From positions 302,312,001 to 302,376,000 of the forward strand of contig CM126204.1 of the NCBI GenBank assembly GCA_052327205.1: a stretch of DNA of 64,000 nt, read 5' to 3'. Positions 1 through 43,470 of this stretch are shown here, piece after piece. The notes under the pieces were generated by a model. The model did no database searches, was not told where the DNA came from, and was given only the letters and a program-made list of their open reading frames with translations. The DNA is from Somniosus microcephalus. Its lineage: Eukaryota. Position 1 is the stretch's first letter. Each line of letters opens with the position of its first letter. A program made the position numbers and the translations under genes.

Positions 1-419
1 AACATGAATGTGTTTCCTAATCCCTTTTGCATCTGCTATCTTTGAAAAAAGACATTAGCCTAGTATTTCTGATCAGTGTTATTTTAATGTCGACAGTAAT
101 GCATTACTACCAGTGTTAAAATATGCTGATCAGAAAAGCTAGACTATTCTATTCAGAAATTATTTCTAGACCTACCTTTCCACATTCACAATTGGCATTC
201 CTATAGTACACAAAACATTGATTGCCGTGAAGGACTGCAGGACTAAAGTTACTGCCATGAGAGTTACAGAAGTAAGCAGAAATGTGCTTTGAGTTATTCG
301 GGACAGTCAAAATCAAGAAAACAAGGCGCCGTCTGCCCAACTATTGACACAATCCTTTATATAATCTATACTAAACGTAGAATTTACCCTGGAATAATAT
401 GTTAGAGGTTGTCACAAAC

Positions 420-660
420 TGTAGATCTAGGGGACACGGGCTCAGGATTAAAAGGTGCACCGACAGTTTAGGTTTAACTTATTTATGCAGAGCGTGTGAA
501 ACAAGCTGCCTGTGGAGATAGATAGTATGTAGAAAAAAAATGAAGGAAGAATTGGATAAACATTTGAGGGAGGGAGTGAGTGAGGTGTATTAGTTTTTGG
601 GACAAGCTAGATAGACTACAGAGTCTTTTCCAGTCCTGTACTTTCTTGTGTTCCTTTGTG
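420..660 (+). mobile_element. Old, degraded CR1/L3 LINE 3' end relic
   Basis: Resembles the CR1 ORF2 C-terminus/3'UTR (agatctaggggacac..., gaattggataaacatttg..., cctgtactttcttgtgttc) and loosely matches 25235-25430 in this window. Confidence 0.45.
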
Positions 661-2615
661 TGTGATTGTAAATCATTTCTCAATTAAAACTGCAATAATA
701 CCATTGCATTATTTATAAGAAAATACTATGCTAATTCCATGGCAATATATCTCTCTTTAAGATTTGAGATATAAATAGCATTCCGATAATTCCAGTAATT
801 CAAAACAAAAAAAAAGAAAACTGAAATATTTGCAGGAATAAACTTTTTAAACTTTAAAATGTTTGAACTACCCAACTTCAAAATAATTATTTACAGTAGA
901 GCACAAACTTACATGATATAATTGCGATAATGAGCATTTGATTTTTTTAAAAACCCACAAATGCAAATTGCTGAAATCCCTAAAGGTCCTTCGTATGTAT
1001 GTAAGCCATCAGCAGCCACAGGTTTATCTGGTGGTAACAAAGCCTTGAATATCACAAGGGCAATTTCCACCACTTTTGAACGGCAGCAGTTTTACATTTC
1101 CCTTTCTTTCCATGCCATGATGAATAACAATAATTTTCAGCTATTTAGGGTGAGTGTGGTAGAAACCACAATCTTTGTTGTGGTCAGTGCAGTACACAGC
1201 AGGGCTGAACGTTTCACTTGGTTAGAGCCTTGGCTTCACTGCTGGGAGACCCCAGCCATTTGGATTGGTGCATATTTTGACATCGGCTCTAATTCGCTTC
1301 TGCTGCCTGTTATAGATCCAGCCAGTGAATGGATGTTATAGTTTGGTTTTGGAAGCTGTTAATATTTTCGACAGAAAACCTGGCATTAATTCTTTAAACT
1401 TCAGTAATAGTATTTTTTTACCAGTTATAGCAATGCAACCTTCTTTGTTGCATTTCGCAGCCTTTTCAAAAGTCTAGCTTCCCTTTCTAATTTCACATTG
1501 TATACTATGTTTTTCAAAACTGTCTTTAAGTGAATACAGTTTTGAAATCTTGTAATCTAATGTATCAACATGTTTGACTAAATTTATTATGGATACATTG
1601 GTCCTTTCGAGAAGGAATGAGATACATGAAAAGGGACATGTTTTATAGTTTAGATTTTTCTTGTAGTTTTTAAAGTTCAACCAGTTTATTCCAACAGAAA
1701 GATACTTTTTTTTGCTTAATGAACTCATTTAATTTATTTTTGTTTCCTCTTTTTTTCTGAGTCTGTGTGCGGGTTTGGGGGGGGGAGGGGGGAGTGCAAA
1801 GGTGTTAATTGAACAAATAGTGCAGATGCTTCTTTCAGTATAAATTCCTTGGCGTTGAACTCTGTCCTGAAAGGTAGCTTGTGCCAAACTCTCCTATATC
1901 CAACATGTTGAAACTTTATTCACCTGACACGCCTTCTGCTGCTTCAGGCTGACCCACTTTCTGAAGATTATGTCTGGTTAGTCTGTACACCCACACAAGG
2001 CAGTTAATTTGGAAATCCTCTTGATGGATTTTTTAAGAACTGCTGGAGTGAACAAAAGAGAGCAAGAAAGAGAGCAAAGTGAGAAATTGGGTTGCAGACT
2101 ATTTTAGCGACGGTATCTCTTTTATTTGGCCAACGGCAATTATTATTCAAAACTGAAGATCAAACCACCCTCGTCCTTTAAAAATACTAAACAAAGATTC
2201 TTTAACAAAATCTCCTTTTTAATGTTTTTTTCAAGTATATTTTTACGGGCCAGTAAAATACAATCTTTGCAGTTTTGGCATTATCTGCTTTGACTTTTAT
2301 TAGAAGCCTTGAGAACTCTGTGTAAAGTGTGTCTACGTGATGGCTGACTGGTATTAAATGTATCTCTTGTAAGACTACAAAATGGATACTGTTTCTTTTT
2401 ATAGAGACAAAATCTCTTTTGTTGGGTTGCATACATAGTAATCAAAAACTTTATTTCCATTCTCTGGCCTTTCATGGACCTCGAGCACTTTTTTTAAAAA
2501 AGCCTTGATTTTCTTAATTTAAAAAAAAGCAAGATCAAAATCTTGGGTAGTGATTGAACCCCCTTCCTCAGAGATGAGAGGAGACATTTTAAAGAGGGAA
2601 TATCCCCATTACTGT

Positions 2616-2673
2616 TCTTCTTAAAGACTACGTTGTTAAAACTATCTTCTTAAAGACTACGTTGTTAAAACTA
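2616..2673. repeat. Perfect 29-bp tandem duplication
   Basis: tcttcttaaagactacgttgttaaaacta occurs twice, at 2616-2644 and 2645-2673. Confidence 0.9.
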
Positions 2674-4430
2674 ATTATTATTACTGTAATGTTTAACATC
2701 CTTTTTTGATTATTTGTTTCCTTTTATTTAGTTCTGTTAATTTTTTTAAAAGTTTGAGTAAGCAATAGGTGCTCGATGACCTTGTCGAGGAACTGGTTGC
2801 GACGTCAGTGCAAGGGAGCTAAATTAATCTACACAGTTAAAATGATATGATGAGTGAGGTACCCTGGGTTAATGGCTAATGTTCTCGATTGGTAACTCCT
2901 CATAACCAATTCCCTCGATGATTTCACCAGGAATCATAATCTTTTAGAAAAATACAACAGTAATAAATAAAAAAAAGTTTAAAATTACAAATTTTCTTGT
3001 GATTTCCATTTATAGATGATGTGTAAGTCAGCCAGTTAAATATCTCATTTTGCGTTGTGAACGAATGTGGATTTTACCAAATTTATACAGAACCGTATCA
3101 TACTATATGTTGGTACTCTGTTATGATGCAGGATTTGACTGTAACCACTGCAAATGCATAAATATGATAGTGCCCATTCAAATACTTAAAACCAAAAATG
3201 TGGATAACTATTTGCTGGTTAAAGACCATAAAAGCAGTGCTAAGTGCTGAAGGTTTCCTTTTCTCTATTATAAAGCCATTATTTAAAACAAAATTAATGT
3301 AATTGGGAACGCATTCTTGTTTTCTTTTTTTTTAAATTAGTTAGTTGCAGTGACATGTTCATACATTGGCAAATCCTGACTGTACTCTTTTGTGTGACCG
3401 ACTACATAGCCAACATTTAAAAAAAACTCCCTCAATCATTTCTTGGCAAACTGGAGCTCTAGGTAGTCAAGCTGTAAATGCTGGTGGGAACAATATGGTT
3501 TAAAGCTTTTGGGTTTGCTAAATGTTGACACTCCTAGAGAAAAAAATGCAGCAATGATTGGCATTCAAAATCAGTCAGTGAAACATGTACCCTGCAATTA
3601 AATAGAATGATGTGAAAGACAATTTCTGTATCAGTCGAGCAAACGGACCTCATTTTTACTAACTCACTGGGTTCAGCAAAGTAGTTCAAGGGTTCATCTA
3701 GCAACTTTTGAGTTTCATTCCTCATATCAGTAGAGCTCTTGCTAGCACCAGGTGAAATATTAAACGGGGATTTATTTTCACTTGTGCTTCAGCGTCCACT
3801 CTCTTCCCCTCTTTGTCTGTCTTTCTATTTGTCCATCATTCCAATTACGCCCTATTTGCTGTGATCCTCGACTATGGTTCTTTCTCCAGTTGTTGGCATG
3901 TAGTATTTAGGGCACTGGAATTTTCCGTGGTCGCTATAAATGCTCCTTCACAATTAATGGATGGGAAATAACTTCTGCTTTCCCCCACCCTACATCGCTA
4001 GCCCCCCCCCACCCCCCATTACACAGGAAGCCCCTATCTGTTAGTTGCTCCATCTTGTGGTCTAACCAGGAATCGGCAATAAAAATGCTTCAATGAAGAT
4101 TACGGAAAGATTTTAATACAGGTACAAGTTTTCTTCCCCTTCTCAATATCAGTAACGTATCCTTGTTACATCATTCACCATTTGTTTAATAACAAAAATG
4201 CACCATTTCCAAGACTCTGACAAATACAAAAATCAGGGCATTTTTTCATGAATGCTTTCAAACATTTAGACCATATTAGCTGTTTTAAAAGGAATTAATT
4301 AATTAACAACCCACCCCATTAGCTGGATAGTGCAAAGAAGCTTTACTGGCTGTTTTGAGGTCTCTGGGTTTAGTAAGGATTAAGCAATGGAAAATCTCTT
4401 CAGTGAGAAAAAAATAGGAAATCTCCAGAC

Positions 4431-7861: not shown

Positions 7862-8712
7862 TCTATATATATAAATGAATCGATCTGTCTGTCTGTCTGT
7901 CCTTCTGTCCTCGGGTGTGCGTCTGTCCAGCTATGCGCTCGAAAGTTATAGAGCGTACCTACGCGCGCGTTACCTCCAAAGAAAGCTTACGGTTCCGGAA
8001 CGGTCGTAAGCGTATTTACTTTTCGGTCGGACGAAAATTGTTGGCGCCTTATGCAAAATACCTTCAAAATTAAACTCATTATCTGCTACTTAGCATTGAT
8101 TGACTGACGTCAAGGTTCGACCAATCCTGTGCCGTCACGATTGACCAGTCCTACAGTACAGTCCCCTGATGGTTGGCCAATCGGTGTGTGTGTGTGGGCG
8201 GGACTAATCGTTTTCATCTCAGGGATGTGGCAGCCATTGCCTCAAGCTAAAAACACCATTTACTTCCAGCTCAAAATCTGCTGATGCAGCTTCGAAAAAG
8301 TTAGTATCTCTTATGTTATTTTTAAAAGATTTACCAAAAACGTTTTATAAGTACTTTCACTTTCATCTTTGAAGGTATTAAAAGGTAGAAATGTTGCCCG
8401 GCAGCAGATTCACAAAGGGACAGACAGACAGGGCCTGAAAGCCTGGTACTCAATTTAAAATGTTGCCCAGCAGCAGATTGAGAGAGGGACACAGAGACAG
8501 GGTCCAAAAGCCTGGGACTCGATTTAAACCGCCCAGCCCGGCAGCAGATTCACAGAGGGACAGACAGACAGGGCCCGAAAGCCTGGGACTCCATTTAAAA
8601 TGTTGCCTGGCACCAGATTCACAGAGGGACACAGAGAGGCCCCAAAGCCTGGCACTCGATTTAAACCGCCCGGCCCAAAACAGCCCTGGCAAAGCCGGGC
8701 TCCCCCAGCTAG
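7862..8712 (+). mobile_element. Non-autonomous Helitron
   Basis: Inserted between A and T with no TSD. 5' end is TCTATATATATAAA followed by a (TCTG)n tract. Subterminal hairpin gccctggcaaagccgggc (8683-8700) lies 12 nt before the end of the terminal CTAG (8709-8712; alternative CTAG at 8715-8718). Confidence 0.85.
8389..8676 (+). repeat. Four ~69-71 bp tandem units arranged as a 140-bp A-B dimer inside the Helitron
   Basis: gca(g/c)cagatt anchors at 8401, 8470, 8541 and 8610. Units 1 and 3 end in tttaaaatgttgcc; units 2 and 4 end in tttaaaccgccc. Confidence 0.9.
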
Positions 8713-16192: not shown

Positions 16193-16265
16193 GAGAAGAA
16201 CAGGGGAGTTTTTCCCAGTGTTCTAGCCAACATTTATCCTTCAACCAGCATCACTAAAAAACATT
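16193..16265 (+). mobile_element. Fragment of Deu-domain (SacSINE1-like) SINE
   Basis: gaagaacaggggagtt...gccaacatttatccttcaacc matches 37784-37850. Confidence 0.55.
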
Positions 16266-17973: not shown

Positions 17974-18375
17974 TTTTATTAATTAATTCCTGGGATGTGG
18001 GTGTTGCTGGCAAGGCCAGCATTTATTACCCATCCCTAATTACCCTTGAGAAGGTGGTGGTGAGCTGCCTTTTACAACTGAGTGGCTTGCTAGGCCATTT
18101 CAGAGGGCAGTTAAGAGTCAACCACATTGCTGTGGATCTGGAGCCACATATAGGCCAGACCAGGTAAGGATGGCAGATTTCCTTCCCTAAAGGACCAGAT
18201 GGGTTTTTACGACAATCCGGTAGTTTCATGGTCACTGTTACTGATACTAGTTTTTTATTCCAGATTTATTTAATTAACTGAATTTAAATTCTCCAGCTGT
18301 GATTTGAACTCAGGATCACAAGTCCAGGCTTCTGGATTACTAGTCCAGTAACATAACCACTAGGCTACCATACCC
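17974..18375 (-). mobile_element. tRNA-derived SINE made of the 5' head/body plus 3' tail of the LINE at 40554-43470
   Basis: Minus strand carries A box TAGCCTAGTGG, anticodon arm CTGGA-CTAGTAA-TCCAG and B box GTTCAAATC. 18073-18375 aligns to 43158-43470, and 17985-18070 aligns to about 40563-40650. Confidence 0.9.
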
Positions 18376-20854: not shown

Positions 20855-21807
20855 ATGGCAGAGCAGCTTGTGTGTCTAGACTGCAGTATGTGGGAGTTTG
20901 TGGACAGCGAGATGGCCTGGGCAACCACATCTGCAGTAGATGTCTCTGTCTTGAATCTCTCCTGCTCAGAGTCATTGAGCTGGAGTGCGAATTGGAGACA
21001 GTCTGTCACATAAGGGAGGGGGAGCAGTATCTGGACTGTTTTCTCCAGACCTCGGTCACATCTTTTAGAGAGATACAGGTTCAGAACGGGGTTGGTGTGA
21101 CCAGTAGTGTGCAGAGCAAGGGGAACCCAGGTGAGATAGAGAATGAGGATCAGCAGAAACTGATCCTATTCAACAAGTAAAATGTACTTGCTACCTGTGA
21201 GGATAAGGATAAAGACTATTGGAAGGACAGCCAGAATGTGGACCATGGCACCGTGGAGCAGGAGGCTGTCCAAAGGGTGGAGGAGGAGGAGGAGGGGTAG
21301 TGTAATGTGGTAGTTGTAGAGGATTAAGTAATTAAGGGGACAGATAACATCCTTTGTAAGCAAGATCGCGAGTTATGTTGCCTACCTGGAGCCAGGCTGA
21401 GGGACCTCTCGAACCGGCTTGAAAGGATTTTGGAGAGGGAGGGGGGGGAGGATCCCGTCGTTGTGGTCCATGTTGGGACCAACAACATAGGGAAGAGTAG
21501 GCAAGAGGTCCTGTTTGGGGAGTACCAGGAACTAGGAGCTAAATTAAAGAACAGGATCTCAAGGGTTATAATCTCTGGATTATTACCTGAGCCACGTGCA
21601 AATTGCCATAGGGATAAGAAGATTAGGGAGGTGAACACGTGGCTGAAGGAGTGGTGTGGGCAAGAGTGGTTCCATTTCATCGGGCACTGGCACCAGTATT
21701 GGGACAGGAAGGAACTGTACCATTGGGACGGGTTCCACCTGAACCGGGCTGGGAATAGAGTCCTAGCGGAAAGGATAAATAGGACGGTCACAAGGACTTT
21801 AAACTAG
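20855..21807 (+). pseudogene. CR1 ORF1 (zinc-finger/leucine zipper plus SGNH esterase), disrupted
   Basis: MAEQLVCLDCSMWE..., CSRCLCLESLLLRVIELECELE, CCLPGAR, VVVVHVGTNNIG, IISGLLP, WDGFHLNRAG; frameshifts and stops present. Confidence 0.9.
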
Positions 21808-22019: not shown

Positions 22020-25000
22020 CAAATAAGCATTCTTTATACAAACGCACGGAATAAATTGAATGAACTGCAGGCGCAAATTCAACTTGGAGGGTATGACATG
22101 ATAGCCATTACTGAGACATAGCTGCAAGATGGTCAGGACTGGGAACTAAATATACTAGATTAAAAGGCCTACAGGAAAGATGGGGAAAATGGCAGAGGGG
22201 GAAGAGTAGCCTTAGTGATTAAGGATGAAATCACTTCCATGATAAGAGAGGATATAACGAAGGGTAAGCAGGCAAGGGAGACTTTATGGGTAGAATTAAG
22301 AAATAGGAAAGGATTTAAGACTGTAGTGGTAGCAGCTGTGAAGTGCTAGATTGTATAAGTGCAGAGATTAGACAAGCATGTAGTAAAGGCAGAGTAGTTT
22401 TAATGGGGGATTTTAACTTTCATATAGATTGGGATAAGCAGATTAGTACATGTCAGAAAAGTAGTGAATTTCTTGAGTGTGTCCGAGATAGTTTTCCACA
22501 ACAGTATGTCCTAGAACCAACAAGGGGACATGACATATAAGATTTAGTAATGAGCTAGATTTAGTTAATAGCCTAATGGTGCATAAACTTTTATCTAATA
22601 GCGATCATAACATGATCGAGTTCAACGTAGTGTTTGAAAGGGAGAAATGTGAAACAGCTACAGGTACACTATCCTTTATCCGCACTTCCGAAAACCTCTA
22701 AAAACCGAAAGTTTTTTCGTGGAGCGTAAGTCGTGCACACGACATGACCCGAGTGGCGCCAAACATGACGGGAGTGGTCCGGAAGCTCTGCCTTTCCCTG
22801 TGAGCAGGGCAGAGGGTCACAGAGTTCCCTCCTGGGTAGGAGATTGCAGGCCGAGCCGGGCAGCGTGAAGGAGGTACCGGGAGAGTGAACCCAACAATAC
22901 AGCGGCCCGTCCGATAGCTGCAGCAGCCCGTCCGATAGTCTTTCCTTCCCCCCCCCCCCCCCAACCTGATTTGCGGGCCAGCTTAGTGTAGGAGTCAGCC
23001 GATATCCGGCTTTCCCACAACTGGCGGCGGCAGTCGAGCCCCAGACCCCCGCTAAGTCAAGGAATTCAGATACGGAGCAGGGGGAGCCGGAAACCTCGAT
23101 CTAACGGCAGAAATCAGCAGCCGTTTTGTTAGGTTTTTTTGTTCCCCTAGCATTTTTTTTCTTCCCCTAGCATTTTTTTAAACAGTCAGGCTGTGGAAAG
23201 AGTCTCTGTAGCTTAGCAACAGCTTCAGAGACTCTTCCAAGGCAGGGCCCGAGTGTTTACAAGCTGTTGTTAAGCAACAGTGTTTGTTGTCAGATACGGA
23301 GATGAAAACCTTCTAAAATCCGAAAAATTCCGAAAACCGAAACACAGCTGGTCCCAAGGTTTTCGGATAAAGGATAGTCTACCTGTACTAAGATTCTAGA
23401 TTTAGGTCAGGCTGACTTCAATGCGATGAGACAGACTGTCCACAGTAAATTGGGCAAATCTGTTAATGGGTAAAATGACAAGATCAGTGGGAGCGGTTCA
23501 AAAAAGAATTTGTGATACAGAAGCAGTTTATACCCCTAAGGGGCAAGAGCTCTACTTGCCCCCAAAATAGCCATGGATGACGAAAGAGGTAAGAGATGAC
23601 ATAAAACTAAAAGAAAAAGCATACAAAACTGCAAAAAATAGCGCAGATCCTGGCGAATGGGAAAGATACAAAGAATAGCAAAGGGTCACAAAACAGATAG
23701 TAAGAGCTACACAAAGGGAGTATGTAAAGAAACTTGCAAGGGATATTAAAACCAACACAAATTTTTACAATTACATTAGGAAAAAGAGGGTAGTCAGGAG
23801 CAATGTTGGCCCCTTAAACTGCTAGCAGTGATTTTGTCAATGATAATAAGGAAATGTTGAATAATTACTTGGTGTCAGTATTTACAGTAGAGGAAGAGGG
23901 TAGTATGCCGGAAATCCCAAGGAAACTAGTATCGAATCTGGGACAGGGACTCAACAAAATTAACGTATGTAAAATAACATTAATGAAGAAAATAATGGCA
24001 CTAAAGAGTGACAAATCCCCAGGACCAGATGGTTTTAAAGGAAGTAGGTGAGCACATTGCTGATGCCCTAACTATAATCTTCCAAAGTTCTCTGGATTCA
24101 GGAACCATTCCGTTAGATTGGAAAATTGTGCATGTCACTCTGCTTTTTAAGGATGGTGAGAGAGGGAAACCAGGGAATTATAGACCAGTTAGCCTAGCAT
24201 CTGTTGTCGGGAAATTACTGGAGTCTATAATTAAGGATAGGTTGACTGAACACCTTGAAAATTTTCAGCTGATCAGAGAGCCAGCATAGATTTGTTAAAG
24301 GTAGGTCATACCTGATGAATCTGATTAATTTTTTGAAGAGGTGACTAAAGTAGTGGACAGGGGAATGTCTATGGATGTTATTTATATGGACTTTCAGACA
24401 GTATTTGATAAAGTCCCCCCTAAGAGACTGTTAACTAAGGTTGAAACCCATGGAATTGAGGGCAAATTATTGACCTGGTTAGGAAATTGGCTGAGCGGCA
24501 GGAGACAGAGAGTAGGGATAATGGGCAGGTACTCTAATTGGCAGGATGTGTCTAGTGGTGTCCCGCAGGGATCTGTGTTGGGGCCTCAACTATTCATCAT
24601 ATTTATTAATGACTTAGATGATGGCATAGAAAGATGACACAAAGATAGGCGTTATTGTAAGCAGTGTAGATGAAAGCATAAAATTAAAAAGAGATATTGA
24701 TAGATTAAGTGAATGTCAAAACTGAGGCAAATGTAGGCAAATGTGAGGTCATCCACTTTGGACCTAAAAAGAATAGAACAGGGTACTTCCTAAATGGTGA
24801 AAAGCTAAAAACAGTGGATGTCCAAAGAGACCTGGGGGTTCACGTACATAGATCATTAAAATGTCATGAACAGATATAGAAAATAATCAAAAAGGTTAAT
24901 GGAATGCTGGCCTTTATATCTAGAGGACTAGAATACAAGGAGGTAGAAGCTACAGTGCAGCTATACAAAGCCATCGTTAGACCATACCTGGAATACTGTG

Positions 25001-25445
25001 AGCAGTTATGGGCACCACATCTTGGGAAGAATATATTGGCCTTGCAGGGAGTGCAGCATAGGTTTACCAGAATGATACCCGGAGTCCAGGAGTTAAATTA
25101 CAAGGAGAGATTGTACAAACTAGGGTTGTATTCCCTGGAATTTTGAAGGCCATGGGGGTGATCTGATCGAAGTTTTCAAGCTATTAAGGGGAACAAATAG
25201 GGTAGATAGAGAGAAACTATTTCTGCTGGTTGGGGAATCTAGGACGAGGGGACATAGTCTAAAAATTTGAGCCAGACCTTTCAGGAGTGAAATTAGGAAA
25301 AACTTCTATACACAAAGGGTGGTAGAAGTTTGGAACTTTCTTCAGCAAACAGCAACTGATGCTAGATCAATTGTTAATTTTAAATCGGAGATTGATAGAT
25401 TTTTGTTAAACAAAGGTATTAAGGGATATGGGGCAAAGGCGAGTA
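22020..25445 (+). pseudogene. CR1 ORF2 (APE endonuclease plus reverse transcriptase), disrupted
   Basis: [65 protein letters not shown] small deletion near 24633 truncates the FADD motif. Many stops. Confidence 0.92.
22661..23385. mobile_element. Tc1/mariner pogo/Tigger-type (MER46/Tigger4-like) non-autonomous element inserted in CR1 ORF2
   Basis: TIRs caggtacactatcctttatccg / cggataaaggatagtctacctg (21/22 match) and TA TSD (22659-60, 23386-87). Removing it restores the CR1 frame ETATKILDLGQADF. Confidence 0.92.
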
Positions 25446-25746
25446 AGAACATAAGAATTAGGAGCAGGAGTAGGCCAGGCGGCCCTCGAGCCTGCTCTGC
25501 CATTCAATAAGATCATGGCTGATCTTCGACCTCAACTCCACTTTCCCGCCCGATCTCCCTATCCCTTGAGTCCAAAAACCTACCTATCTTGGCCTTGAAT
25601 ATACCCAACGACTGAGCATCCACAGAACTTCCGGATAGAGAATTCCAAAAACCTATCTATCTTGGCCTTGAATATACCCAACGACTGAGCATCCACAGAG
25701 CTTCCGGATCGAGAATTCCAAAGATTCACAACCCACTGAGTGAAGA
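25444..25746 (-). mobile_element. Second CR1 3' fragment inserted antisense into the 3'UTR of the first CR1
   Basis: taagaacataagaattaggagcaggagtaggcc...gatcatggctgatct is the reverse complement of a CR1 3' end. Confidence 0.85.
25571..25716. repeat. 73-bp tandem duplication within the antisense CR1 fragment
   Basis: tccaaaaaccta...gagaat occurs at 25571-25643 and 25644-25716, bounded by tccaaa microhomology. Confidence 0.9.
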
Positions 25747-27849
25747 GAGCAAAGAGTAAAGTTGCAGATCAGCCATGATCTCATTGAATGGTAGAAGAGG
25801 CTCGAGAGGCTAACTGGCCTACTACTCCTCCTATGTCCCTATATCTGCTCGGACAGTCACAGTTTATATAGTGCCTGATTGTAAAATATTTTTATAGACA
25901 CTAGAAGAGCAGTTGATGTATAGATGCTGCATATAATTTCAAATATGAAATATTGGCTGGATTTAAAATAAAACTTTCAACTAGCAATGATGGGTGACTC
26001 TGTTGACATGCCATCATATCTCATACCTTTATGTTTTGAAACAAAAAGGACATATGGTGGCCTTCTGTTGTGGAGTTTCATTCTTGTGCATTTCCATTTT
26101 GCTTTTGAGTTTTAATTATTAATGATATATTTGCATAGTTTTTTTCAAGCTATTTTAAAAACAAATTTCTATCATCCTTTATCACATTGTGGCAATATAC
26201 CGTGTGATAGGTGATATTTCATCAAAAAAGAAGAGGACCAGGCCTCCTTCCACTAGCCAGAACAAAAGGGACACAACAGTTATAAATATTGCTGAATTGT
26301 TTACGAGCTATTTGGACAGAAAATAAAAGGAACTGAACACATTACACTGGACAGCTGCAGCGGTCTGTGGGGAAAGTTGGTACAGATGGTAGAAAAAGTG
26401 GTAAAATAAACTGCCTTATGGCTGCTAAATAAAAAAAAGAGAATGAGGTTTGTCGATCGAACGTAAGAAATTTGTTCCCCTGAGGGAGTTTCAATACTCA
26501 TTGGGCCAAATTAAGGAGAATATTACAGATGACAACAATCCTGTTGATTTTCTTTTTTTTTTAAAAAACAGAAAGCTGGATATTTATTAGTTAATATTTC
26601 TTCAAAAAAATGATGTACAAAACACTATGGTAATAGTTTCCTAATGAGGGTTACAATCATAATTTACACTTGGCTTTTTTTTAAGTGAGTGTATGTGTGT
26701 GAGAGAGAGAAAGACAGAGAGAGCAAGAAGTGGAGCTGATTCTAATGAGCACCTGCTTTTTTTATGCAGAGTATATAATGCCAAAGTTCTAGGTCCTGTA
26801 TAGATGCATAGCCCCGTTTTAAAAGGACATTTCCTCTTTCATTTGTCTACATAGGTTCAAGTGTGAAACTGAACAGTCAAACTTTGCCACTGTGCTTTTA
26901 CCTATTTGGACCTGTAATTAATTATCTTTTAAAGTGTTCTGTATCTGGGCGAAAAGTACCACTGAATAGTAGCCACTGTTGTGATAATTTGCAGCATATT
27001 TGCCACTATGTTTTCAGGTGGGAGAGCGTGGGCTGTGCTATTGTACCATTGCAATATCCTAGTACGGAGAAGAGAGGGAAGCTCGGACTGTTTGAGAGAT
27101 TGCAAGCATGTGGCATTATAAAAATACTATTTAAAAGATGTGATTCACTGTATTAAAAATAAATTAATGTGAGTAAAAATAATGTGGTAGTACCTCAGGT
27201 CATTCATCATCATCCTTTGCATATTGTAAAATCAATTTACCTTCAGGTCCTGTATCACACAACATTTTTGATAGGCAATGTGCAGGCATCTTAGTAAAGC
27301 TTAAACATTTGCAAAGAAAATTCACTGCCATATGTCTATTATACATAGTAATAGGGAACTCCAGGTAAATTTTAAAACAATCTAATATCGGGGTTCAGAT
27401 GACAAACAGGGACCACTTGTAGACTTTATGATGTCATCTCAATGTCCTCAATTAGATTAATGCTTTCTAATTCACAAATAAACCTGTCTAGTTACCAACT
27501 GCTCTGCACTTAGGTCCTTCTGGAGTGATGCTTTTACCACCGGTGCAGTAGGTTTTTAGTCTTAATCTAGAGTGTTTTGGAAATCTGAGTGACAGATAGA
27601 TGTTTTGGACTCATTCCAAAAAAAGTGCTTACTTTTTTCATACCTCTTCCCCGCCACCCCACCCCACTCAATTCCTAGGGTTAACTTCAAGACTACTTGT
27701 AAATTTTGCACTGATTTTCATTGATTAATAGGGCTACAAATCTAAAACTCACTCTTACTTACATTTCTTCTTCCCCCAATCCTTCACCTGCAGCCTCCTC
27801 AACAGGTGCAACAACCCAGCTGATCTGTGAGTTAGCCAGTATTGAGCTT

Positions 27850-37570: not shown

Positions 37571-37950
37571 GCCAGCTTGGTTCAGTGGTAGCACTTTGAT
37601 CTCTTGAGTCAGAAGGACATGGGTTCAAGCACCACTCTAGGATATGAGCACATAATCTAGGCCACACTTCTGTGTAGTACTGAGGAAATAATGCATTAGC
37701 AGAAGTACTATTTCTTGGATGAGATTTTAAAACATGCCTTGTATGCCTACTCAGATGAGCATAAAAGTTCCCATGGCACTATTTGAAGAAGAGCAGGGCA
37801 GTTCTCCCCATGTCCTGGCCAACATTCATCCCTTAACGAATGGCACCAAAAAAACAGCTTAACTGCTATTTGTGCGATCTTGCTGTGCACAAATTGGCTG
37901 CCGCATGTGTCTATGTAACAACAGTGACTACACTTCAAAACAGTTCATTT
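37571..37950 (+). mobile_element. Deu-domain (SacSINE1-like) tRNA SINE, near full length
   Basis: A-box-like tggttcagtggtagc, B-box-like ggttcaagcacc, core aaaagttcccatggcactatttgaagaagagcaggg, and 3' acaacagtgactacacttcaaaa. Confidence 0.8.
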
Positions 37951-40616
37951 AAATAATAGGAAGGGGGTCATTTAAATAATAGTGGAAGGTGCCCACACCT
38001 GTACCACACAACAGGGGTGCCTGATGGAAGCAGTGTGACCTTAGAGTGGCACCCTGCTGTAGTGAGAGGGGGAGTCAGAAGCGGGTTGGGTCTGAAGATT
38101 GAGGTGGGACAACATTCTTAATTTATTTAATATTGAAGGAAGGGCCATTATGATAATTGAATCCTCGGTGATCAATTCCGTTTGGATTTGTCACCAGGGA
38201 GCTTCAGTAGGTCCAAAATAGAACCTATGTCTGCTGATGTAGGTTCCACTGCACCACTTGGGTGTATCTAGCAGGATTCCTGGAAGAACCCCAACACTCC
38301 CCCAAACTGCTGTTGGGATGTAGGGGGATGAGCAATAAAAGTATATGCCCTGCCACCATTCTGGGATTTTTTGTACAGTTTAAATGGGGTAGAAACGTGA
38401 CATATCTGGATTCCTTCCCCCCCCACCCCCCCACAAAATTTAAGTCCTCTCCCCTGCCATAACTCTAGCAGAATTTTGCCCTCCCACACCCATGGGATGT
38501 GATTTTTAGGATTTGCTGACCACTTTCTATTTTAGAAATTTATGGACAGCTGTTACAATGCAAAACTGTATGGGCAGAAACCCTACGGTTTGTGTATCCA
38601 TACATATGTTGGGTAGTCCTTCCCCCCAGTGCACTATAATGTGATAAGGCAATTGGCTTATTTTCTGGCTGAAGTTGGATGGCTTGTGACAATTTCCATT
38701 ATGGAGTGGCAGAGATGCACTACTGTGCACAGGCATTTAGCAAAGTCCCATCTTTTAATTCCCCTGTTGGTCTCAGAAAAGACCGAAGTTTGATGAAGTA
38801 ATTAAAATGGCTGGGATGTCAAATATTGAAATTAGCTCGTTTCCAATCTTGGTGAAAGACATTGCAAGTTGACAGATTTTTAACAATTGGCTCAGTGGTT
38901 GCCGCAGACTGGTTGAAAATAACACAATTTTTGAAGAAAGCCTTGATGGAAAGAACAGGTTAATTGAGAACCAGCAAGCTTCCAGTTACTGGCTTAACCC
39001 CAATATCAGTGTTTTTTTTATTCCTTGTCCTCCTTTGGTTTTGCAGTCATCGCTGGTCAGACCTGATGTACAGCATTGAGTGAAAGTTTCTTCAGCCCCT
39101 TGCCTCATTTGCATATGAATCTCTATTCAACAGTTAATGTCCGTTACAGACAGAGCGCTCAATTCTTGTTTTCTGTAAGCCTGTTGTAAAATGTCGGTCT
39201 GTCACTTGCAATATAAAAAAGCAAAAATGATGGCATTTGTAAAAATGTTATCACCTCATAAACACAAATTGTAAAGACATGAAAGCGATCTCTGCCATGC
39301 TTTCAGTGGGAGTTAGTACAGCTGCCTTTTTTAAAAACACAGTTGTCCAGATTCCCACAGCTCACTACCAATAGACCAGTTTACACAAGCATATTTAATT
39401 CAGAGTTCCCCAAATTAACATTTAATTTGCATAATATGTGACACTCTATACAACATAGACTTGCCCAGGAATTTAAATCCGTTGCATCTTTCTTCAAAAT
39501 GCTCCAGAAACTTCAGTAATTAACTTCAAATTGATCCCTTTTTGTCTTTCCAAATAAAATTAAGCCACGGTTAACATATATTCATCTAATTAATAAAAGA
39601 TTTGTTATTAAGACCCCGTTAACCGCCATTCACAAAAGTCAAGAATTAGTTGCTACAAACTTTGTTCATCGTATATATAAGTGCTCAAAGATGTAAATGC
39701 TGTGTTTTGTATATGGTGTTATACAACAGTCATCAGTGCCGGAATCTGGGTCAAAGGTCAAGCATTGTAGCAATTTTGTTAAAGTTGTGCGGAATAGTTT
39801 TGTTAGGTCCAGAAACTACTCAGTCTGGTGTACTGGATTTGGTTTATTAAAATGAAACACATTATGGTAGGCACATCACGCCCACCCCCTCCCCCCAATT
39901 TCTCTTGTGATTTCCCAAGCCCACCAGACCGGGCCATCTGAGGAATTGCCAATTGTGTGAAGACGCTTCTTCAAAAAGAGGAAGGATTGACAGGTGAGTC
40001 AGCATGTGCCGCTGTTCCACACCTGCAGGCACCTGGATGGACAGCAACACCCGGACAGGTCACATGTTACATGCTATTAGTCGTGAAGGTGTAATGTGGC
40101 ACAGGACAACATACAGATTGAAGAAAATAACTTTCAAACGGGGTAAAAAGTCTCTTGGGAATAAAATACAGTAAATAATCATGGGAGACTTTGAGAGACA
40201 ATTTACCTGTGTGGAATTGTATAGATTGTGACTCAGACCTGACGTGTCAAGGCCATTGATGAGAATCCCCAAAATTAGGACAATCCAAATGGTAAGGAAG
40301 ATATAGCTTTTATTAACCATCTGGTTGATGCCAGATCAGAATCTTAATGACTGACTTAGTCTTCTGGTGAGTGTTCGGGTGAATTTTGTTTAATTTCAGC
40401 TGGGTGCCATTGGAACTCCAAAGCCCCTATTTTAACCTGGAGCTGGAATCGGGGGTGGAGGCCGAGTGCCAACCCCCCTGGCCTTGGCAGCATTACGCCC
40501 AGGTGATTTTAACTCCCACATTTCAACTGCATGCCTTCTGTCAGTTTCCTGCCTTTTTTTTTATTCGTTCCTGGGTTGTGGGTGTCGCTGGCAAGGCCAG
40601 CATTTATTGCCCATCC

Positions 40617-43183
40617 CTAATTGCCCTTGAGAAGGCGGTGGTGAGCCGCCACCTTGAACCGCTGCAGTCCGCGTGGTGAAGGTACCCCCACAGTGCTGTT
40701 AGGGGGTGAGTTACAGGATTTTGACCCAACGACGATGAAGGAACGGCAATATATTTCCAAGTCAGGATGGGGTTTAACTTGGAGGGGAACCTGAAGGTGA
40801 TGGTTCTCCCATGCGCCTGCTGCCCTTGTCCTTTTAGGTGGTTGAGGTTGAGGGTTTGGAGGTGCTGACGAAGAAGCCTTGGCGAGTTGCTGTAGTGCAT
40901 CTTGTAGATGGTACACACTACAGCCATGGTGCAGCGGTGGTGGAGGGAGTGAATGTTTAAGGTGGTGGATGGAGTGCCAATCAAGCGGGCTGCTTTGTCC
41001 TGGATGGTGTTGAGCTTCTTGAGTTTTGTTGGAGCTGCACTCATCCAGGCAAGTGGAGAGTATTCCACAACACTCCATACTTGTCCCCTGTAGATCGTGG
41101 AAAGGCTTTGGGTAGTCAGGAGGTGAGACACTCGCCACAGAATACTCAGCCTCTGACCTGCTCTTGTAGCCACAGTATTTATGTGGCTGGTTCAGTTAAG
41201 TTTCTGGTCAATGGTAACTCCCAGGATGTTGATGGTGGGGGATTCGGCAGTGGTAATGCCATTGAATGTCAAGGGGTGGTGGTTAGACTCTCGCTTGTTC
41301 GGAGATAGTCATTGCTTGGCACTTTTGTGGCGAGAATGTTACTTGCTACTTACCAGCCCAAGCCTGAATGTCTTCCAGGTCTTGCTGCATTCGGACATGG
41401 ACTGCTTCATTATCTAAGGAGTTGCAAATGGAACTGAATACTGCAATCGTCAGCGAACATCCCCACTTCTGACCTTATGATGGAGGGAAGGTCATTGATG
41501 AAGCAGCTGAAGATGGTTGGGCCTAGGACACTGCCCTGGGGAACTCCTGCAGCGATGTCCTGAGGCTGAGATGATTGATCTCCAACAAATACAACCATCT
41601 TCCTTTGTGCTAGGTATGACTCCAGCCAGTGTAGTTTTCCCCCTGATTCCCATTGACTTCAATTTTACTAGGGCTCCTTGATGCCACACTTGGCCAAATG
41701 CTGCCTTGATGTCAAGGGCAGTCGCTCTCACCGCACTTCTGGAATTCAGCTCTTTTGTCCATGTTTGGACTAAGGCTGTAATGAGGTCTGGAGCCGAGTG
41801 GTCCTGGCAGAACTCAAACTGAGCATCGGTGAGCAGGTAATTGGTGAGTAAGTGCCGCTTGATAGCACTGTCGACGACACCCTCCATCGCTTTGCTGATG
41901 ATTGAGAGTAGGCTGATGGGGCGGTAATTGGCCGGATTGGATTTGTCCTGCTTTTTGTGGACAGGACATACCTGGGCAGTTTTCCACATTGTCGGATAGA
42001 TGCCAGTAATGTAGCTGTACTGGAACAGCTTGGCTAGAGGTGCGGCTAGTTCTGGAGCACAAGTCTTCAGCACGACAGCCGGGATGTTGTCGGGGCCCAT
42101 AGCCTTTGCTGTATCCAGTGCGCTCAGCCATTTCTTGATGTCACGTGGAGTGAATCGAATTGGCTGAAGACTGGCTTCTGTGATGGTGGGGACCTCAGGA
42201 GGAGACCGATATGGATCATCCACATGACACTTCTGGCTGAAGATGGTTGCAAATGCTTCAGCCTTGTCTTTTGCACTCGCGAGCTGGGCTCCATCATCAT
42301 TGAGGATGGGGATATTCATGGAGCCTCCGTTAGTTGTTTAATTGTCCACCACCATTCACGACTGGATGTGGCAGGACTGCAGAGCTTTGATCTGATCTGT
42401 TGATTGTGGGATCGCTTAGCCCTGTCTATAGCATGGTGCTTCCGCTGATTAGCATGCCTGTAGTCCTGTGTTGCAGAGTACCCAGGTTGGCACCTCATTT
42501 GTAGGTACGTCTGGTGCTGCTCCTGGCATGCTCTTCTGCACTCCATTGAACCAGGGTTGGTCCCCTGGCTTGATGGTAATGGTAGAGTGAGGGATATGCT
42601 GGGCCATGAGGTCACAGATTGTGGTGGAATACAATTCTGCTGATAGCCCACAGCAGATGCCCAGTTTTGAGCTGCTAGATCTGTTCTGAATCTATCCCAT
42701 TTAGCACGGTGGTAGTGCCACACAACACGATGGAGGGTGTCCTCAGTCTGAAGACGTGATTTCGTCTCCACTAGGACTGTGCAGACCTGAAGTCATGAGA
42801 CTTCATGGGGTCCGGAATCAACGTTGAGGACCCGCAGGGCCACTCCCTCCCGACTGTATACCACTGTGCCGCTACCTCTGGTGGGTCTGTCCTGCCGGTG
42901 GGACAGGACATACCCAGGGATGGTGATGGAGGAATTTGGGGCATTGGCTGAAAGGTATGATTCTGTGAGTATGACTATGTCAGGCTAGTCAGTGGGACAG
43001 CTCTCCCAATTTTGGCACACGCCCCCAGATGTTAGTGAGGAGGACTTTGCAGGGTCGACTGGGCTGGGTGTGCTGTTGTCTTATCCGAAGCCAGTGCCGA
43101 GGTCGATGCTGGGTGGTCCGTCCGGTTTTATTCTTATTGTTTTTCGTAGTGGTTGTGTACAACTGAGTGGCTTGCTAGGACAT
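40617..43183 (-). pseudogene. LINE EN-RT ORF, disrupted, with the central endonuclease deleted
   Basis: KVLLTNIWG, PDIVILTESYL, IPGYVLSHRQDRPTRGSGTVVY, then a deletion at ~42783, then [75 protein letters not shown]. Confidence 0.9.
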
Positions 43184-43384
43184 TTCAGAGGGCAGTTAAG
43201 AGTCAACCACATTGCTCTGGGTCTGGAGTCACATATAGGCCAGACCAGGTAAGGTTGGCAGATTTCCTTCCCTAACTGACATTAGTGAACCAGAATCCGA
43301 TAGTTTCATGGTCACCATTACTGATACTAGCTTTTTAATTCCAGATTCATTTAATTAACTAAATTTAAATTCCACAGCTGCCGT

Positions 43385-43470
43385 GGTGGGATTTGAACTG
43401 ACGTCTCCGGATTATTAGGCCAGGCCTCTGGATTACTAGTCCAGTAACATCACCACTATGCTACCGTTCC
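43385..43470 (-). promoter_or_regulatory. tRNA-derived internal Pol III promoter at the LINE 5' end
   Basis: A box TAGCATAGTGG (43463-43453), perfect 5-bp anticodon stem with 7-nt loop CTGGA-CTAGTAA-TCCAG (43444-43428), B box GTTCAAATCCC (43398-43388). Confidence 0.8.

Follow-up and report, generated by a model that had tools for sequence, protein, structure and literature searches.

A 64,000-nucleotide window of the genome of Somniosus microcephalus (contig CM126204.1, positions 302,312,001 to 302,376,000) carries on its minus strand a dead member of a 3.3-kb family of long interspersed nuclear elements (LINEs), which has two subfamilies, A and B, in this genome. Among the known elasmobranch Zenon LINEs, the family is a long-lived variant that carries a tRNA head: a tRNA-derived head is followed by a non-coding body and by one open reading frame (ORF) for an endonuclease (EN) and a reverse transcriptase (RT), an order that does not vary between copies, between subfamilies or among five published species. 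The sequence suggests, with a probability that we put at roughly 70%, that in this single-ORF element the head drives RNA polymerase III (Pol III) through the whole 3.3 kb. In the working division of retroelements, LINEs have their RNA made by RNA polymerase II (Pol II) and code for protein, while short interspersed nuclear elements (SINEs) have theirs made by Pol III and are non-coding. If the reading is true, a long-lived, high-copy LINE run by a tRNA promoter breaks this division.

Architecture and distribution of the family

The original prediction, made from the letters of this stretch, had described an A box, an anticodon arm, a B box, the motif KVLLTNIWG, an RT and an A tail. All of these are found in place on the minus strand, and the predicted spacing is confirmed, with a body of about 228 nt and the EN beginning about 112 nt beyond it. 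The parts of the window copy are as follows.

43379..43470, minus strand: whole tRNA-derived head (motifs, tRNA alignments, stems kept by paired changes between subfamilies)
43453-43463, minus strand: A box TAGCATAGTGG of the head
43428-43444, minus strand: anticodon-like arm CTGGA-CTAGTAA-TCCAG of the head
43407-43423, minus strand: inserted hairpin of the head, ahead of the B box
43388-43398, minus strand: B box GTTCAAATCCC of the head
43160..43378, minus strand: non-coding body, about 220-228 nt, with an AT-rich half and then a nearly invariant block of about 135 nt
43163-43188, minus strand: hairpin closing the 135-nt block
43049..43159, minus strand: arginine-rich N-terminal extension without AUG, in the EN frame (linker frame kept across copies, translations)
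40617..43048, minus strand: single EN-RT ORF, broken in this copy (936 codons, KVLL lysine to stop, in subfamily B majority columns)
Codons from 43048, minus strand: KVLLTNIWG, the first EN motif
42786..43048, minus strand: APE endonuclease, 5' half; the 3' half is removed by a 342-nt deletion private to this copy
41437..41953, minus strand: RT domain, frameshifted in this copy (RVT_1 matches)
41446-41457, minus strand: FADD motif of the RT
40617-40619, minus strand: stop codon
40553..40616, minus strand: short 3' untranslated region with AATAAA and A tail, without target-site duplication

The window copy has lost the second half of its EN to the 342-nt deletion at about 42785 and carries several frame-breaking indels, and RVT_1 (Pfam) is matched in two fragments of it. 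In copy L081, Exo_endo_phos and RVT_1 lie in a single frame (Pfam PF03372, PF14529, PF00078).

A search of the 6.4-Gb genome for the body-ORF junction gave 3703 first-look candidates, of which the best 40 were scored, and the head-body-ORF junction proved to be family-wide rather than a one-off chimera. The full-length element measures about 3290 nt. A sample picked independently of the head (40 of 137 further RT matches, namely the top 20 by score and 20 taken mainly for long open frames) contains 24 copies truncated at the 5' side within the ORF; the remaining 16 all run on into one common leader, and 7 of them reach its first 9 nt. No two of these RT-picked copies share sequence abutting the junction in their flanks, and no alternative shared 5' end was seen. 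The young subfamily B was recognised via one copy, and 30 loci were then picked by EN DNA: 24 enter the head or body and 10 get to position 13 or less. The 5' ends are fixed about 8-10 nt ahead of the A box. The original prediction had named copies that extend into an ORF1 as telling against it; no copy enters an ORF1 or another shared 5' end.

Divergence from the column majority is 1.3% among B copies and 5.3% among A copies, and the A/B split is present in the trees of both the 5' region and the ORF (31 copies). Target-site duplications do not rise above chance in 22 full-length copies, the longest shared flank word being 4-7 nt against a null mean of 4.8. The idea that template switching, by chance or recurrently, joined a common SINE to truncated LINEs and so made these elements deserves next to no credence. 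Short elements with the same head are indeed common (12 of 30 A-type heads), but the identical junction in many copies and in five species refutes it, the head and ORF subfamilies agree, and the short elements end in LINE tails that match their subfamily, those of B also having LINE linker sequence.

Pieces of the element's protein are also present in gene models of several sharks and one ray. The shark models that hold such pieces under host names (P0003, P0009, P0015, P0016, P0020, P0023 and P0024) are either annotation errors or cases of exonisation.

The ORF and its selection

The majority columns of subfamily B hold one frame of 936 codons, with only about 430 nt upstream of it. A family-wide RT frameshift was considered and set aside as an artefact of a variable G run and of the frameshifted query used for picking; the B majority columns are open. 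Comparison of A with B over 935 codons gives Sd 127.5, Nd 75.5, a synonymous rate (dS) of 0.22 and a nonsynonymous rate (dN) of 0.036, hence a ratio of 0.16, and dN/dS is 0.12-0.21 in each of four ORF regions. The ORF has been under purifying selection while the head was attached. Because of the ratio of 0.16, the autonomy originally claimed for this LINE is supported for the source elements, but not for the window copy, which is itself non-functional. The predicted lack of an ORF1 is real but unremarkable, because Zenon elements are universally without one; many of 80 metagenome relatives likewise have no upstream ORF, and we do not treat the loss as a novelty. The element has the make-up of a Zenon, with APE and RT in one ORF, no ORF1 and a poly-A tail.

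The selected ORF bears on a different proposal, in which the element is a long non-autonomous Pol III SINE that carries the ORF of a LINE as its cargo, while a headless Zenon at another genomic site, transcribed by Pol II, mobilises it in trans. The missing AUG start and the lack of an intact copy among 20 would fit such a passenger, and, as the genome searches score best matches only, a rare headless master could escape them. Against this, the low dN/dS in all four ORF regions is measured between two head-bearing subfamilies, no alternative shared 5' end appears in the 40 + 30 copies picked by coding sequence, and the frame is kept through the linker. We regard trans-mobilisation as very improbable.

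The tRNA-derived head

The head is colinear from end to end with Somniosus tRNA-Thr(AGT) and tRNA-Gln genes, except for a hairpin insert of about 20 nt before the B box; its source is likely a tRNA-Thr(AGT), and tRNA-Gln is also possible. The predicted tRNA-like character is borne out by the boxes and the colinearity, but the tRNA score is weak: ARAGORN called no tRNA gene on the head alone, and the Rfam tRNA model scored 17 bits (E 1.3), under its gathering threshold. Between A and B, 22 of 99 head columns differ, with changes in the A and B boxes confined to degenerate positions. Paired changes preserve the D-arm-like stem and also the inserted hairpin, with 3 of 21 pairs altered on both sides.

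None of the 80 metagenome relatives has the head or body (relaxed ARAGORN made 30 low-score calls in 23 loci), neither part was found in viral contigs or in plasmids, and 6 matches from a bacterial pattern search are taken as chance. Judged by eye, the 5' ends of the hagfish and coelacanth Zenon consensuses available from PMC13343379 and that of the lepidopteran Zenon in the accessible part of PMC6740152 are without the head. Because these 5' ends lack it, the deeper origin of the element is likely to be that a Zenon LINE took up a tRNA-headed module, and the head was likely captured once, prior to the shark-ray split.

Separately, contig G000:C38 contains a dense array of tRNA-Gln genes at about 1.4-12.8 Mb; of 176 matches genome-wide, most of those listed lie on that contig.

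Depletion of Pol III terminators

The shortest working Pol III terminators are TTTT and TVTTT, according to the part of PMC8466645 available to us. Pol III terminators are absent from the element: in about 3300 majority columns neither subfamily has a run of four Ts (T4), where 4.0 and 4.8 are expected from composition. Synonymous-codon shuffles, with protein and codon usage fixed, place this depletion in the B ORF beyond codon choice. Runs of three or more Ts number 7 against 15.5 expected (p 0.001), runs of four or more 0 against 2.8 (p 0.03), and TTTT or TVTTT together 1, a single TGTTT, against 5.2 (p 0.012); runs of A, C and G in the same ORF have no significant depletion.

Related ORFs do not behave in this way. 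For this control, 69 long ORFs were taken from the 80 metagenome relatives, leaving out 11 without a 500-aa ORF; T4 is present in 69 of 69, at a lowest density of 2.3 per kb, and the observed-to-expected ratio of runs of three or more Ts has a minimum of 0.79 and a median of 0.98, against 0.45 in the B ORF. In 10 other retroelement ORF pieces of the Somniosus genome (of 12 flank controls, 2 low-complexity ORFs were left out), T runs total 56 against 54.6 expected. The hagfish and coelacanth Zenon consensuses in the available portion of PMC13343379 have T4 runs within their first 400 nt in 3 of 3 cases, by eye. We do not count low phenylalanine content as a Pol III adaptation, as the nearest relatives have this trait too.

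Of 45 mostly older copies 16, and of 14 young ones 3, have a T run where the A tail begins or directly past that point (L031-L099, L211-L229); the count was made with no control, and the runs could reflect ordinary tail decay or the gain of a terminator.

Start of translation and the conserved body block

The B majority columns lack any in-frame ATG from a stop about 35 codons before the EN as far as codon 249. The linker keeps its frame: 70 of the 71 copies have a GCT-to-AAT spacing of 15, 18 or 21 nt, each a multiple of 3, although slippage of repeats by three-nucleotide units might contribute, and outside this spacing the linker holds the frame in 65 of the 71. Of the five consensuses listed first in the accessible material of PMC13343379, four keep the linker frame with different sequence and one is off by one base, by eye. 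The linker encodes an arginine-rich stretch that has a likeness to the basic N-terminus of the homologue P0002. An ATG does precede the EN, out of frame, and it reads ATA in 66 of the 71 scored copies; in subfamily B two in-frame stops follow an ATG-GCC-TAG mini-frame. An AUG start combined with a -1 frameshift or with read-through of the TAG is not favoured, no conserved slippery site being visible by eye, and a ribozyme of the hepatitis delta virus type or another kind had no Rfam match.

Ahead of the linker, the 135-nt block differs between A and B by 1 substitution and one 1-nt indel, where about 25 changes are expected at the synonymous rate (about 19%). We infer that the block may be a cap- and AUG-independent initiation element; as the main rival to this, it could be a promoter element that acts at the DNA level. 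The terminal hairpin loop, CUAGCAA, could pair with a GCUA that lies in frame 12 nt further downstream; the block is invariant and so gives no covariation, and its folding is not above shuffles. In the intergenic-region internal ribosome entry sites (IRESs) of dicistroviruses, an anticodon-like loop pairs with an in-frame codon ahead of a non-AUG start. The pairing of the loop with GCU might be of the same kind, which we offer only as a lead.

SINE-like derivatives

The window contains, beside the LINE, one short relative:

17974..18374, minus strand: SINE-like short derivative, consisting of the LINE head, the body and the last 95 nt or so of the LINE

Such elements are internal deletions of the LINE, and the direction is from LINE to SINE. 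The original description of a SINE-headed LINE is apt in that the head sits on a full LINE, but the SINE-like elements observed derive from the LINE and not the reverse. Thirty loci were picked by the B head, one of them being the query itself; a script sorted them into 19 LINE, 7 SINE-like and 4 other, and inspection, which showed L256 and L259 to be internal deletions, leaves 18 long elements, 9 with a deletion and 3 cut short on the 3' side. The 9 deleted elements have 9 distinct junctions, retain LINE linker sequence and carry B-diagnostic tails. Among 30 A heads there are 12 LINEs, 12 SINE-like elements and 6 others, and some junctions are common to several loci, which suggests that some A-type derivatives have likely been amplified as SINE families of their own. 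The derivatives retain both the A and the B box.

Two details of the junctions may be recorded here. In 7 of the 9 B-type deletions (L231-L259), positions 340-383 are joined to 3128-3173, a narrow clustering without explanation. The shared A-type junctions are those of L270, L285 and L286 (about 344 to 3146) and of L268, L281 and L288 (325 to 3186).

Proposed transcription by Pol III and its alternatives

In the mechanism that we propose, TFIIIC would bind both boxes of the head, and Pol III, reading through as far as the A tail, would make an uncapped RNA. Through the conserved 135-nt block, ribosomes would be able to begin at a non-AUG codon just beyond it, and the EN-RT protein would use target-primed reverse transcription to copy the RNA that encodes it. 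The promoter would thereby travel with each full-length insertion, and any deletion that spares head and tail would directly give a SINE. We consider Pol III transcription of the family probable on the strength of the boxes and the missing terminators. Contigs of four runs guessed to be RNA cover all 30 bins of the element; among the pieces listed, none bridges the head and the EN, a result that speaks neither for nor against expression.

Several observations weigh against this mechanism. An uncapped, AUG-less Pol III RNA would require an unusual way of being translated; folding of the body is not stronger than that of shuffled sequence (z -1.0 to 0.3), and an Rfam search with the element gave no ribozyme or IRES match. 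Taken by itself, the T4 test has modest strength (p 0.03), since T and phenylalanine are scarce in the ORF, the scarcity of phenylalanine being common to its closest relatives P0039 and P0002, and the related ORFs used as controls are only 28-42% identical and mostly richer in T. The count of three double-changed pairs in the head was attained in 46 of 500 shuffles and amounts in effect to one A-versus-B contrast. The anticodon arm, described at the outset as intact, is so in the window copy but broken in the young subfamily B. On the coding side, the neutral control (copies against their own majority) is 0.88 in B but only 0.58 in A, probably because hidden substructure lowers the value. Finally, 20 young copies taken at full length include no intact one, the longest frame being 773 aa.

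The same tRNA-headed family could be autonomous and yet rely on Pol II, its promoter being the conserved 135-nt body or else host read-through, and its head a structural or vestigial part of the 5' end. The body block is far better conserved than the head (1 of 135 against 22 of 99 columns changed), and a capped RNA is easier to translate. LINEs are generally assumed to be Pol II-transcribed (PMC5786205, as far as its available text goes), and an out-of-frame ATG stands before the EN in the published consensuses of all five species in the portion of PMC13343379 at hand. That ATG, however, is out of frame and is mostly ATA in the Somniosus copies. Pol II transcription also leaves unexplained the purge of T runs and TVTTT beyond codon usage, the box-compatible changes in the head and the 5' ends fixed near the A box. 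We consider it unlikely, though worth keeping in view.

Should transcription by Pol III hold, the RNA of the element would be a natural Pol III messenger RNA of 3.3 kb. The birth of a SINE would take one step, the loss of the middle of an already-headed LINE, which is visible in a subfamily only about 1.3% diverged. The translation of an uncapped, AUG-less RNA would also become directly testable through the conserved 135-nt element.

Other features of the window

The plus strand has a 159-aa open frame at 21328-21807, which we take to resemble an esterase-type ORF1 fragment of a canonical CR1. Old LINE fragments at 24167-25337 are about 65% similar to the CR1-like element flanking copy L097. 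The stretches 8396-8676 and 25485-25806 hold tandem repeats of about 70 nt and a 73-nt duplication between 46-nt inverted arms.

Relation to known elements

The original prediction knew of no characterised vertebrate example, and in this respect it has to be amended: the family is published as elasmobranch Zenon. Stuart et al. 2026 (PMC13343379), in the parts available, describe Zenon (CR1-Zenon) LINEs of five elasmobranchs, every one lacking ORF1 and ending in a poly-A tail; for a ray, their table gives 3 of 612 copies as intact. These include SquAca_Zenon-1, CarCar_Zenon-1 and HypSab_Zenon-1, which according to the paper are not formally in a repeat repository. They agree with the window LINE in length (about 3.3 kb), the lack of ORF1, APE and RT, and the A tail, and all 7 published elasmobranch consensuses open with the head, body and linker (first 400 nt, by eye). 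The family is therefore catalogued, and sharks and a ray provide independent confirmation of its architecture. The main text, as far as available, makes no mention of tRNA, polymerase or promoter, and the supplement none of tRNA. The tRNA head with its promoter, the terminator purge, the AUG-less start and the generation of SINEs are found here and are undescribed for elasmobranch Zenon in that material; mechanistically, the element is new if Pol III use is confirmed. A whale shark preprint, in its accessible part, names a CR1-Zenon-like class and nothing further. A description of a Pol III-driven coding LINE was not found in the literature consulted, though Repbase, Dfam, subscription papers and further supplements could contain one, and the sequence motifs of the element had no match in literature text.

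In a quick tree of 39 RT segments built without named Zenon references, the RT forms a group (SH-aLRT 88) together with P0039 of amphioxus and some unnamed proteins; the neighbouring clade includes lepidopteran P0036, and the flanking CR1-like LINE stands apart.

The shark SINEs SacSINE1 and the DeuSINEs likewise combine a tRNA head with a conserved body (PMC5499810, PMC2746220, from the portions available). The body described here is unlike both the published Deu alignment (PMC7245038 supplement, by eye) and a Deu-type SINE of Somniosus, and the element is therefore not SacSINE1. Deu-type SINE fragments do occur in the window, at 37744-37852 and 16196-16260, and match the SINE that hosts the insertion of copy L060.

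The tRNA-derived SINEs with LINE tails, including bipartite ones, of PMC5786205 share with our element a tRNA head, a conserved body, a LINE 3' end and the lack of internal T4. They are, however, short and non-coding, whereas here the head rides on a full coding LINE. In its available text, that source takes LINEs to be Pol II-transcribed, holds that SINEs cannot encode protein and proposes that the head was added after LINE deletion. Measured against SINE2 elements, the family has the tRNA-derived head with A and B boxes, though with a weak Rfam score, and no internal Pol III terminator apart from one TGTTT in B; the short (<1 kb), non-coding form is not that of the 3.3-kb LINE and belongs to its deletion derivatives alone.

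The lepidopteran Zenon/Persaeus system (PMC6740152, as far as accessible) offers the parallel for these derivatives: a single-ORF LINE of about 3.3 kb repeatedly yields short elements made of its 5' and 3' ends, as here, where 9 of 30 B-head loci are internal deletions of a Zenon with their own junctions and B-type tails. Persaeus is without tRNA homology or a Pol III promoter, whereas the derivatives in Somniosus inherit the A and B boxes and therefore resemble true SINEs.

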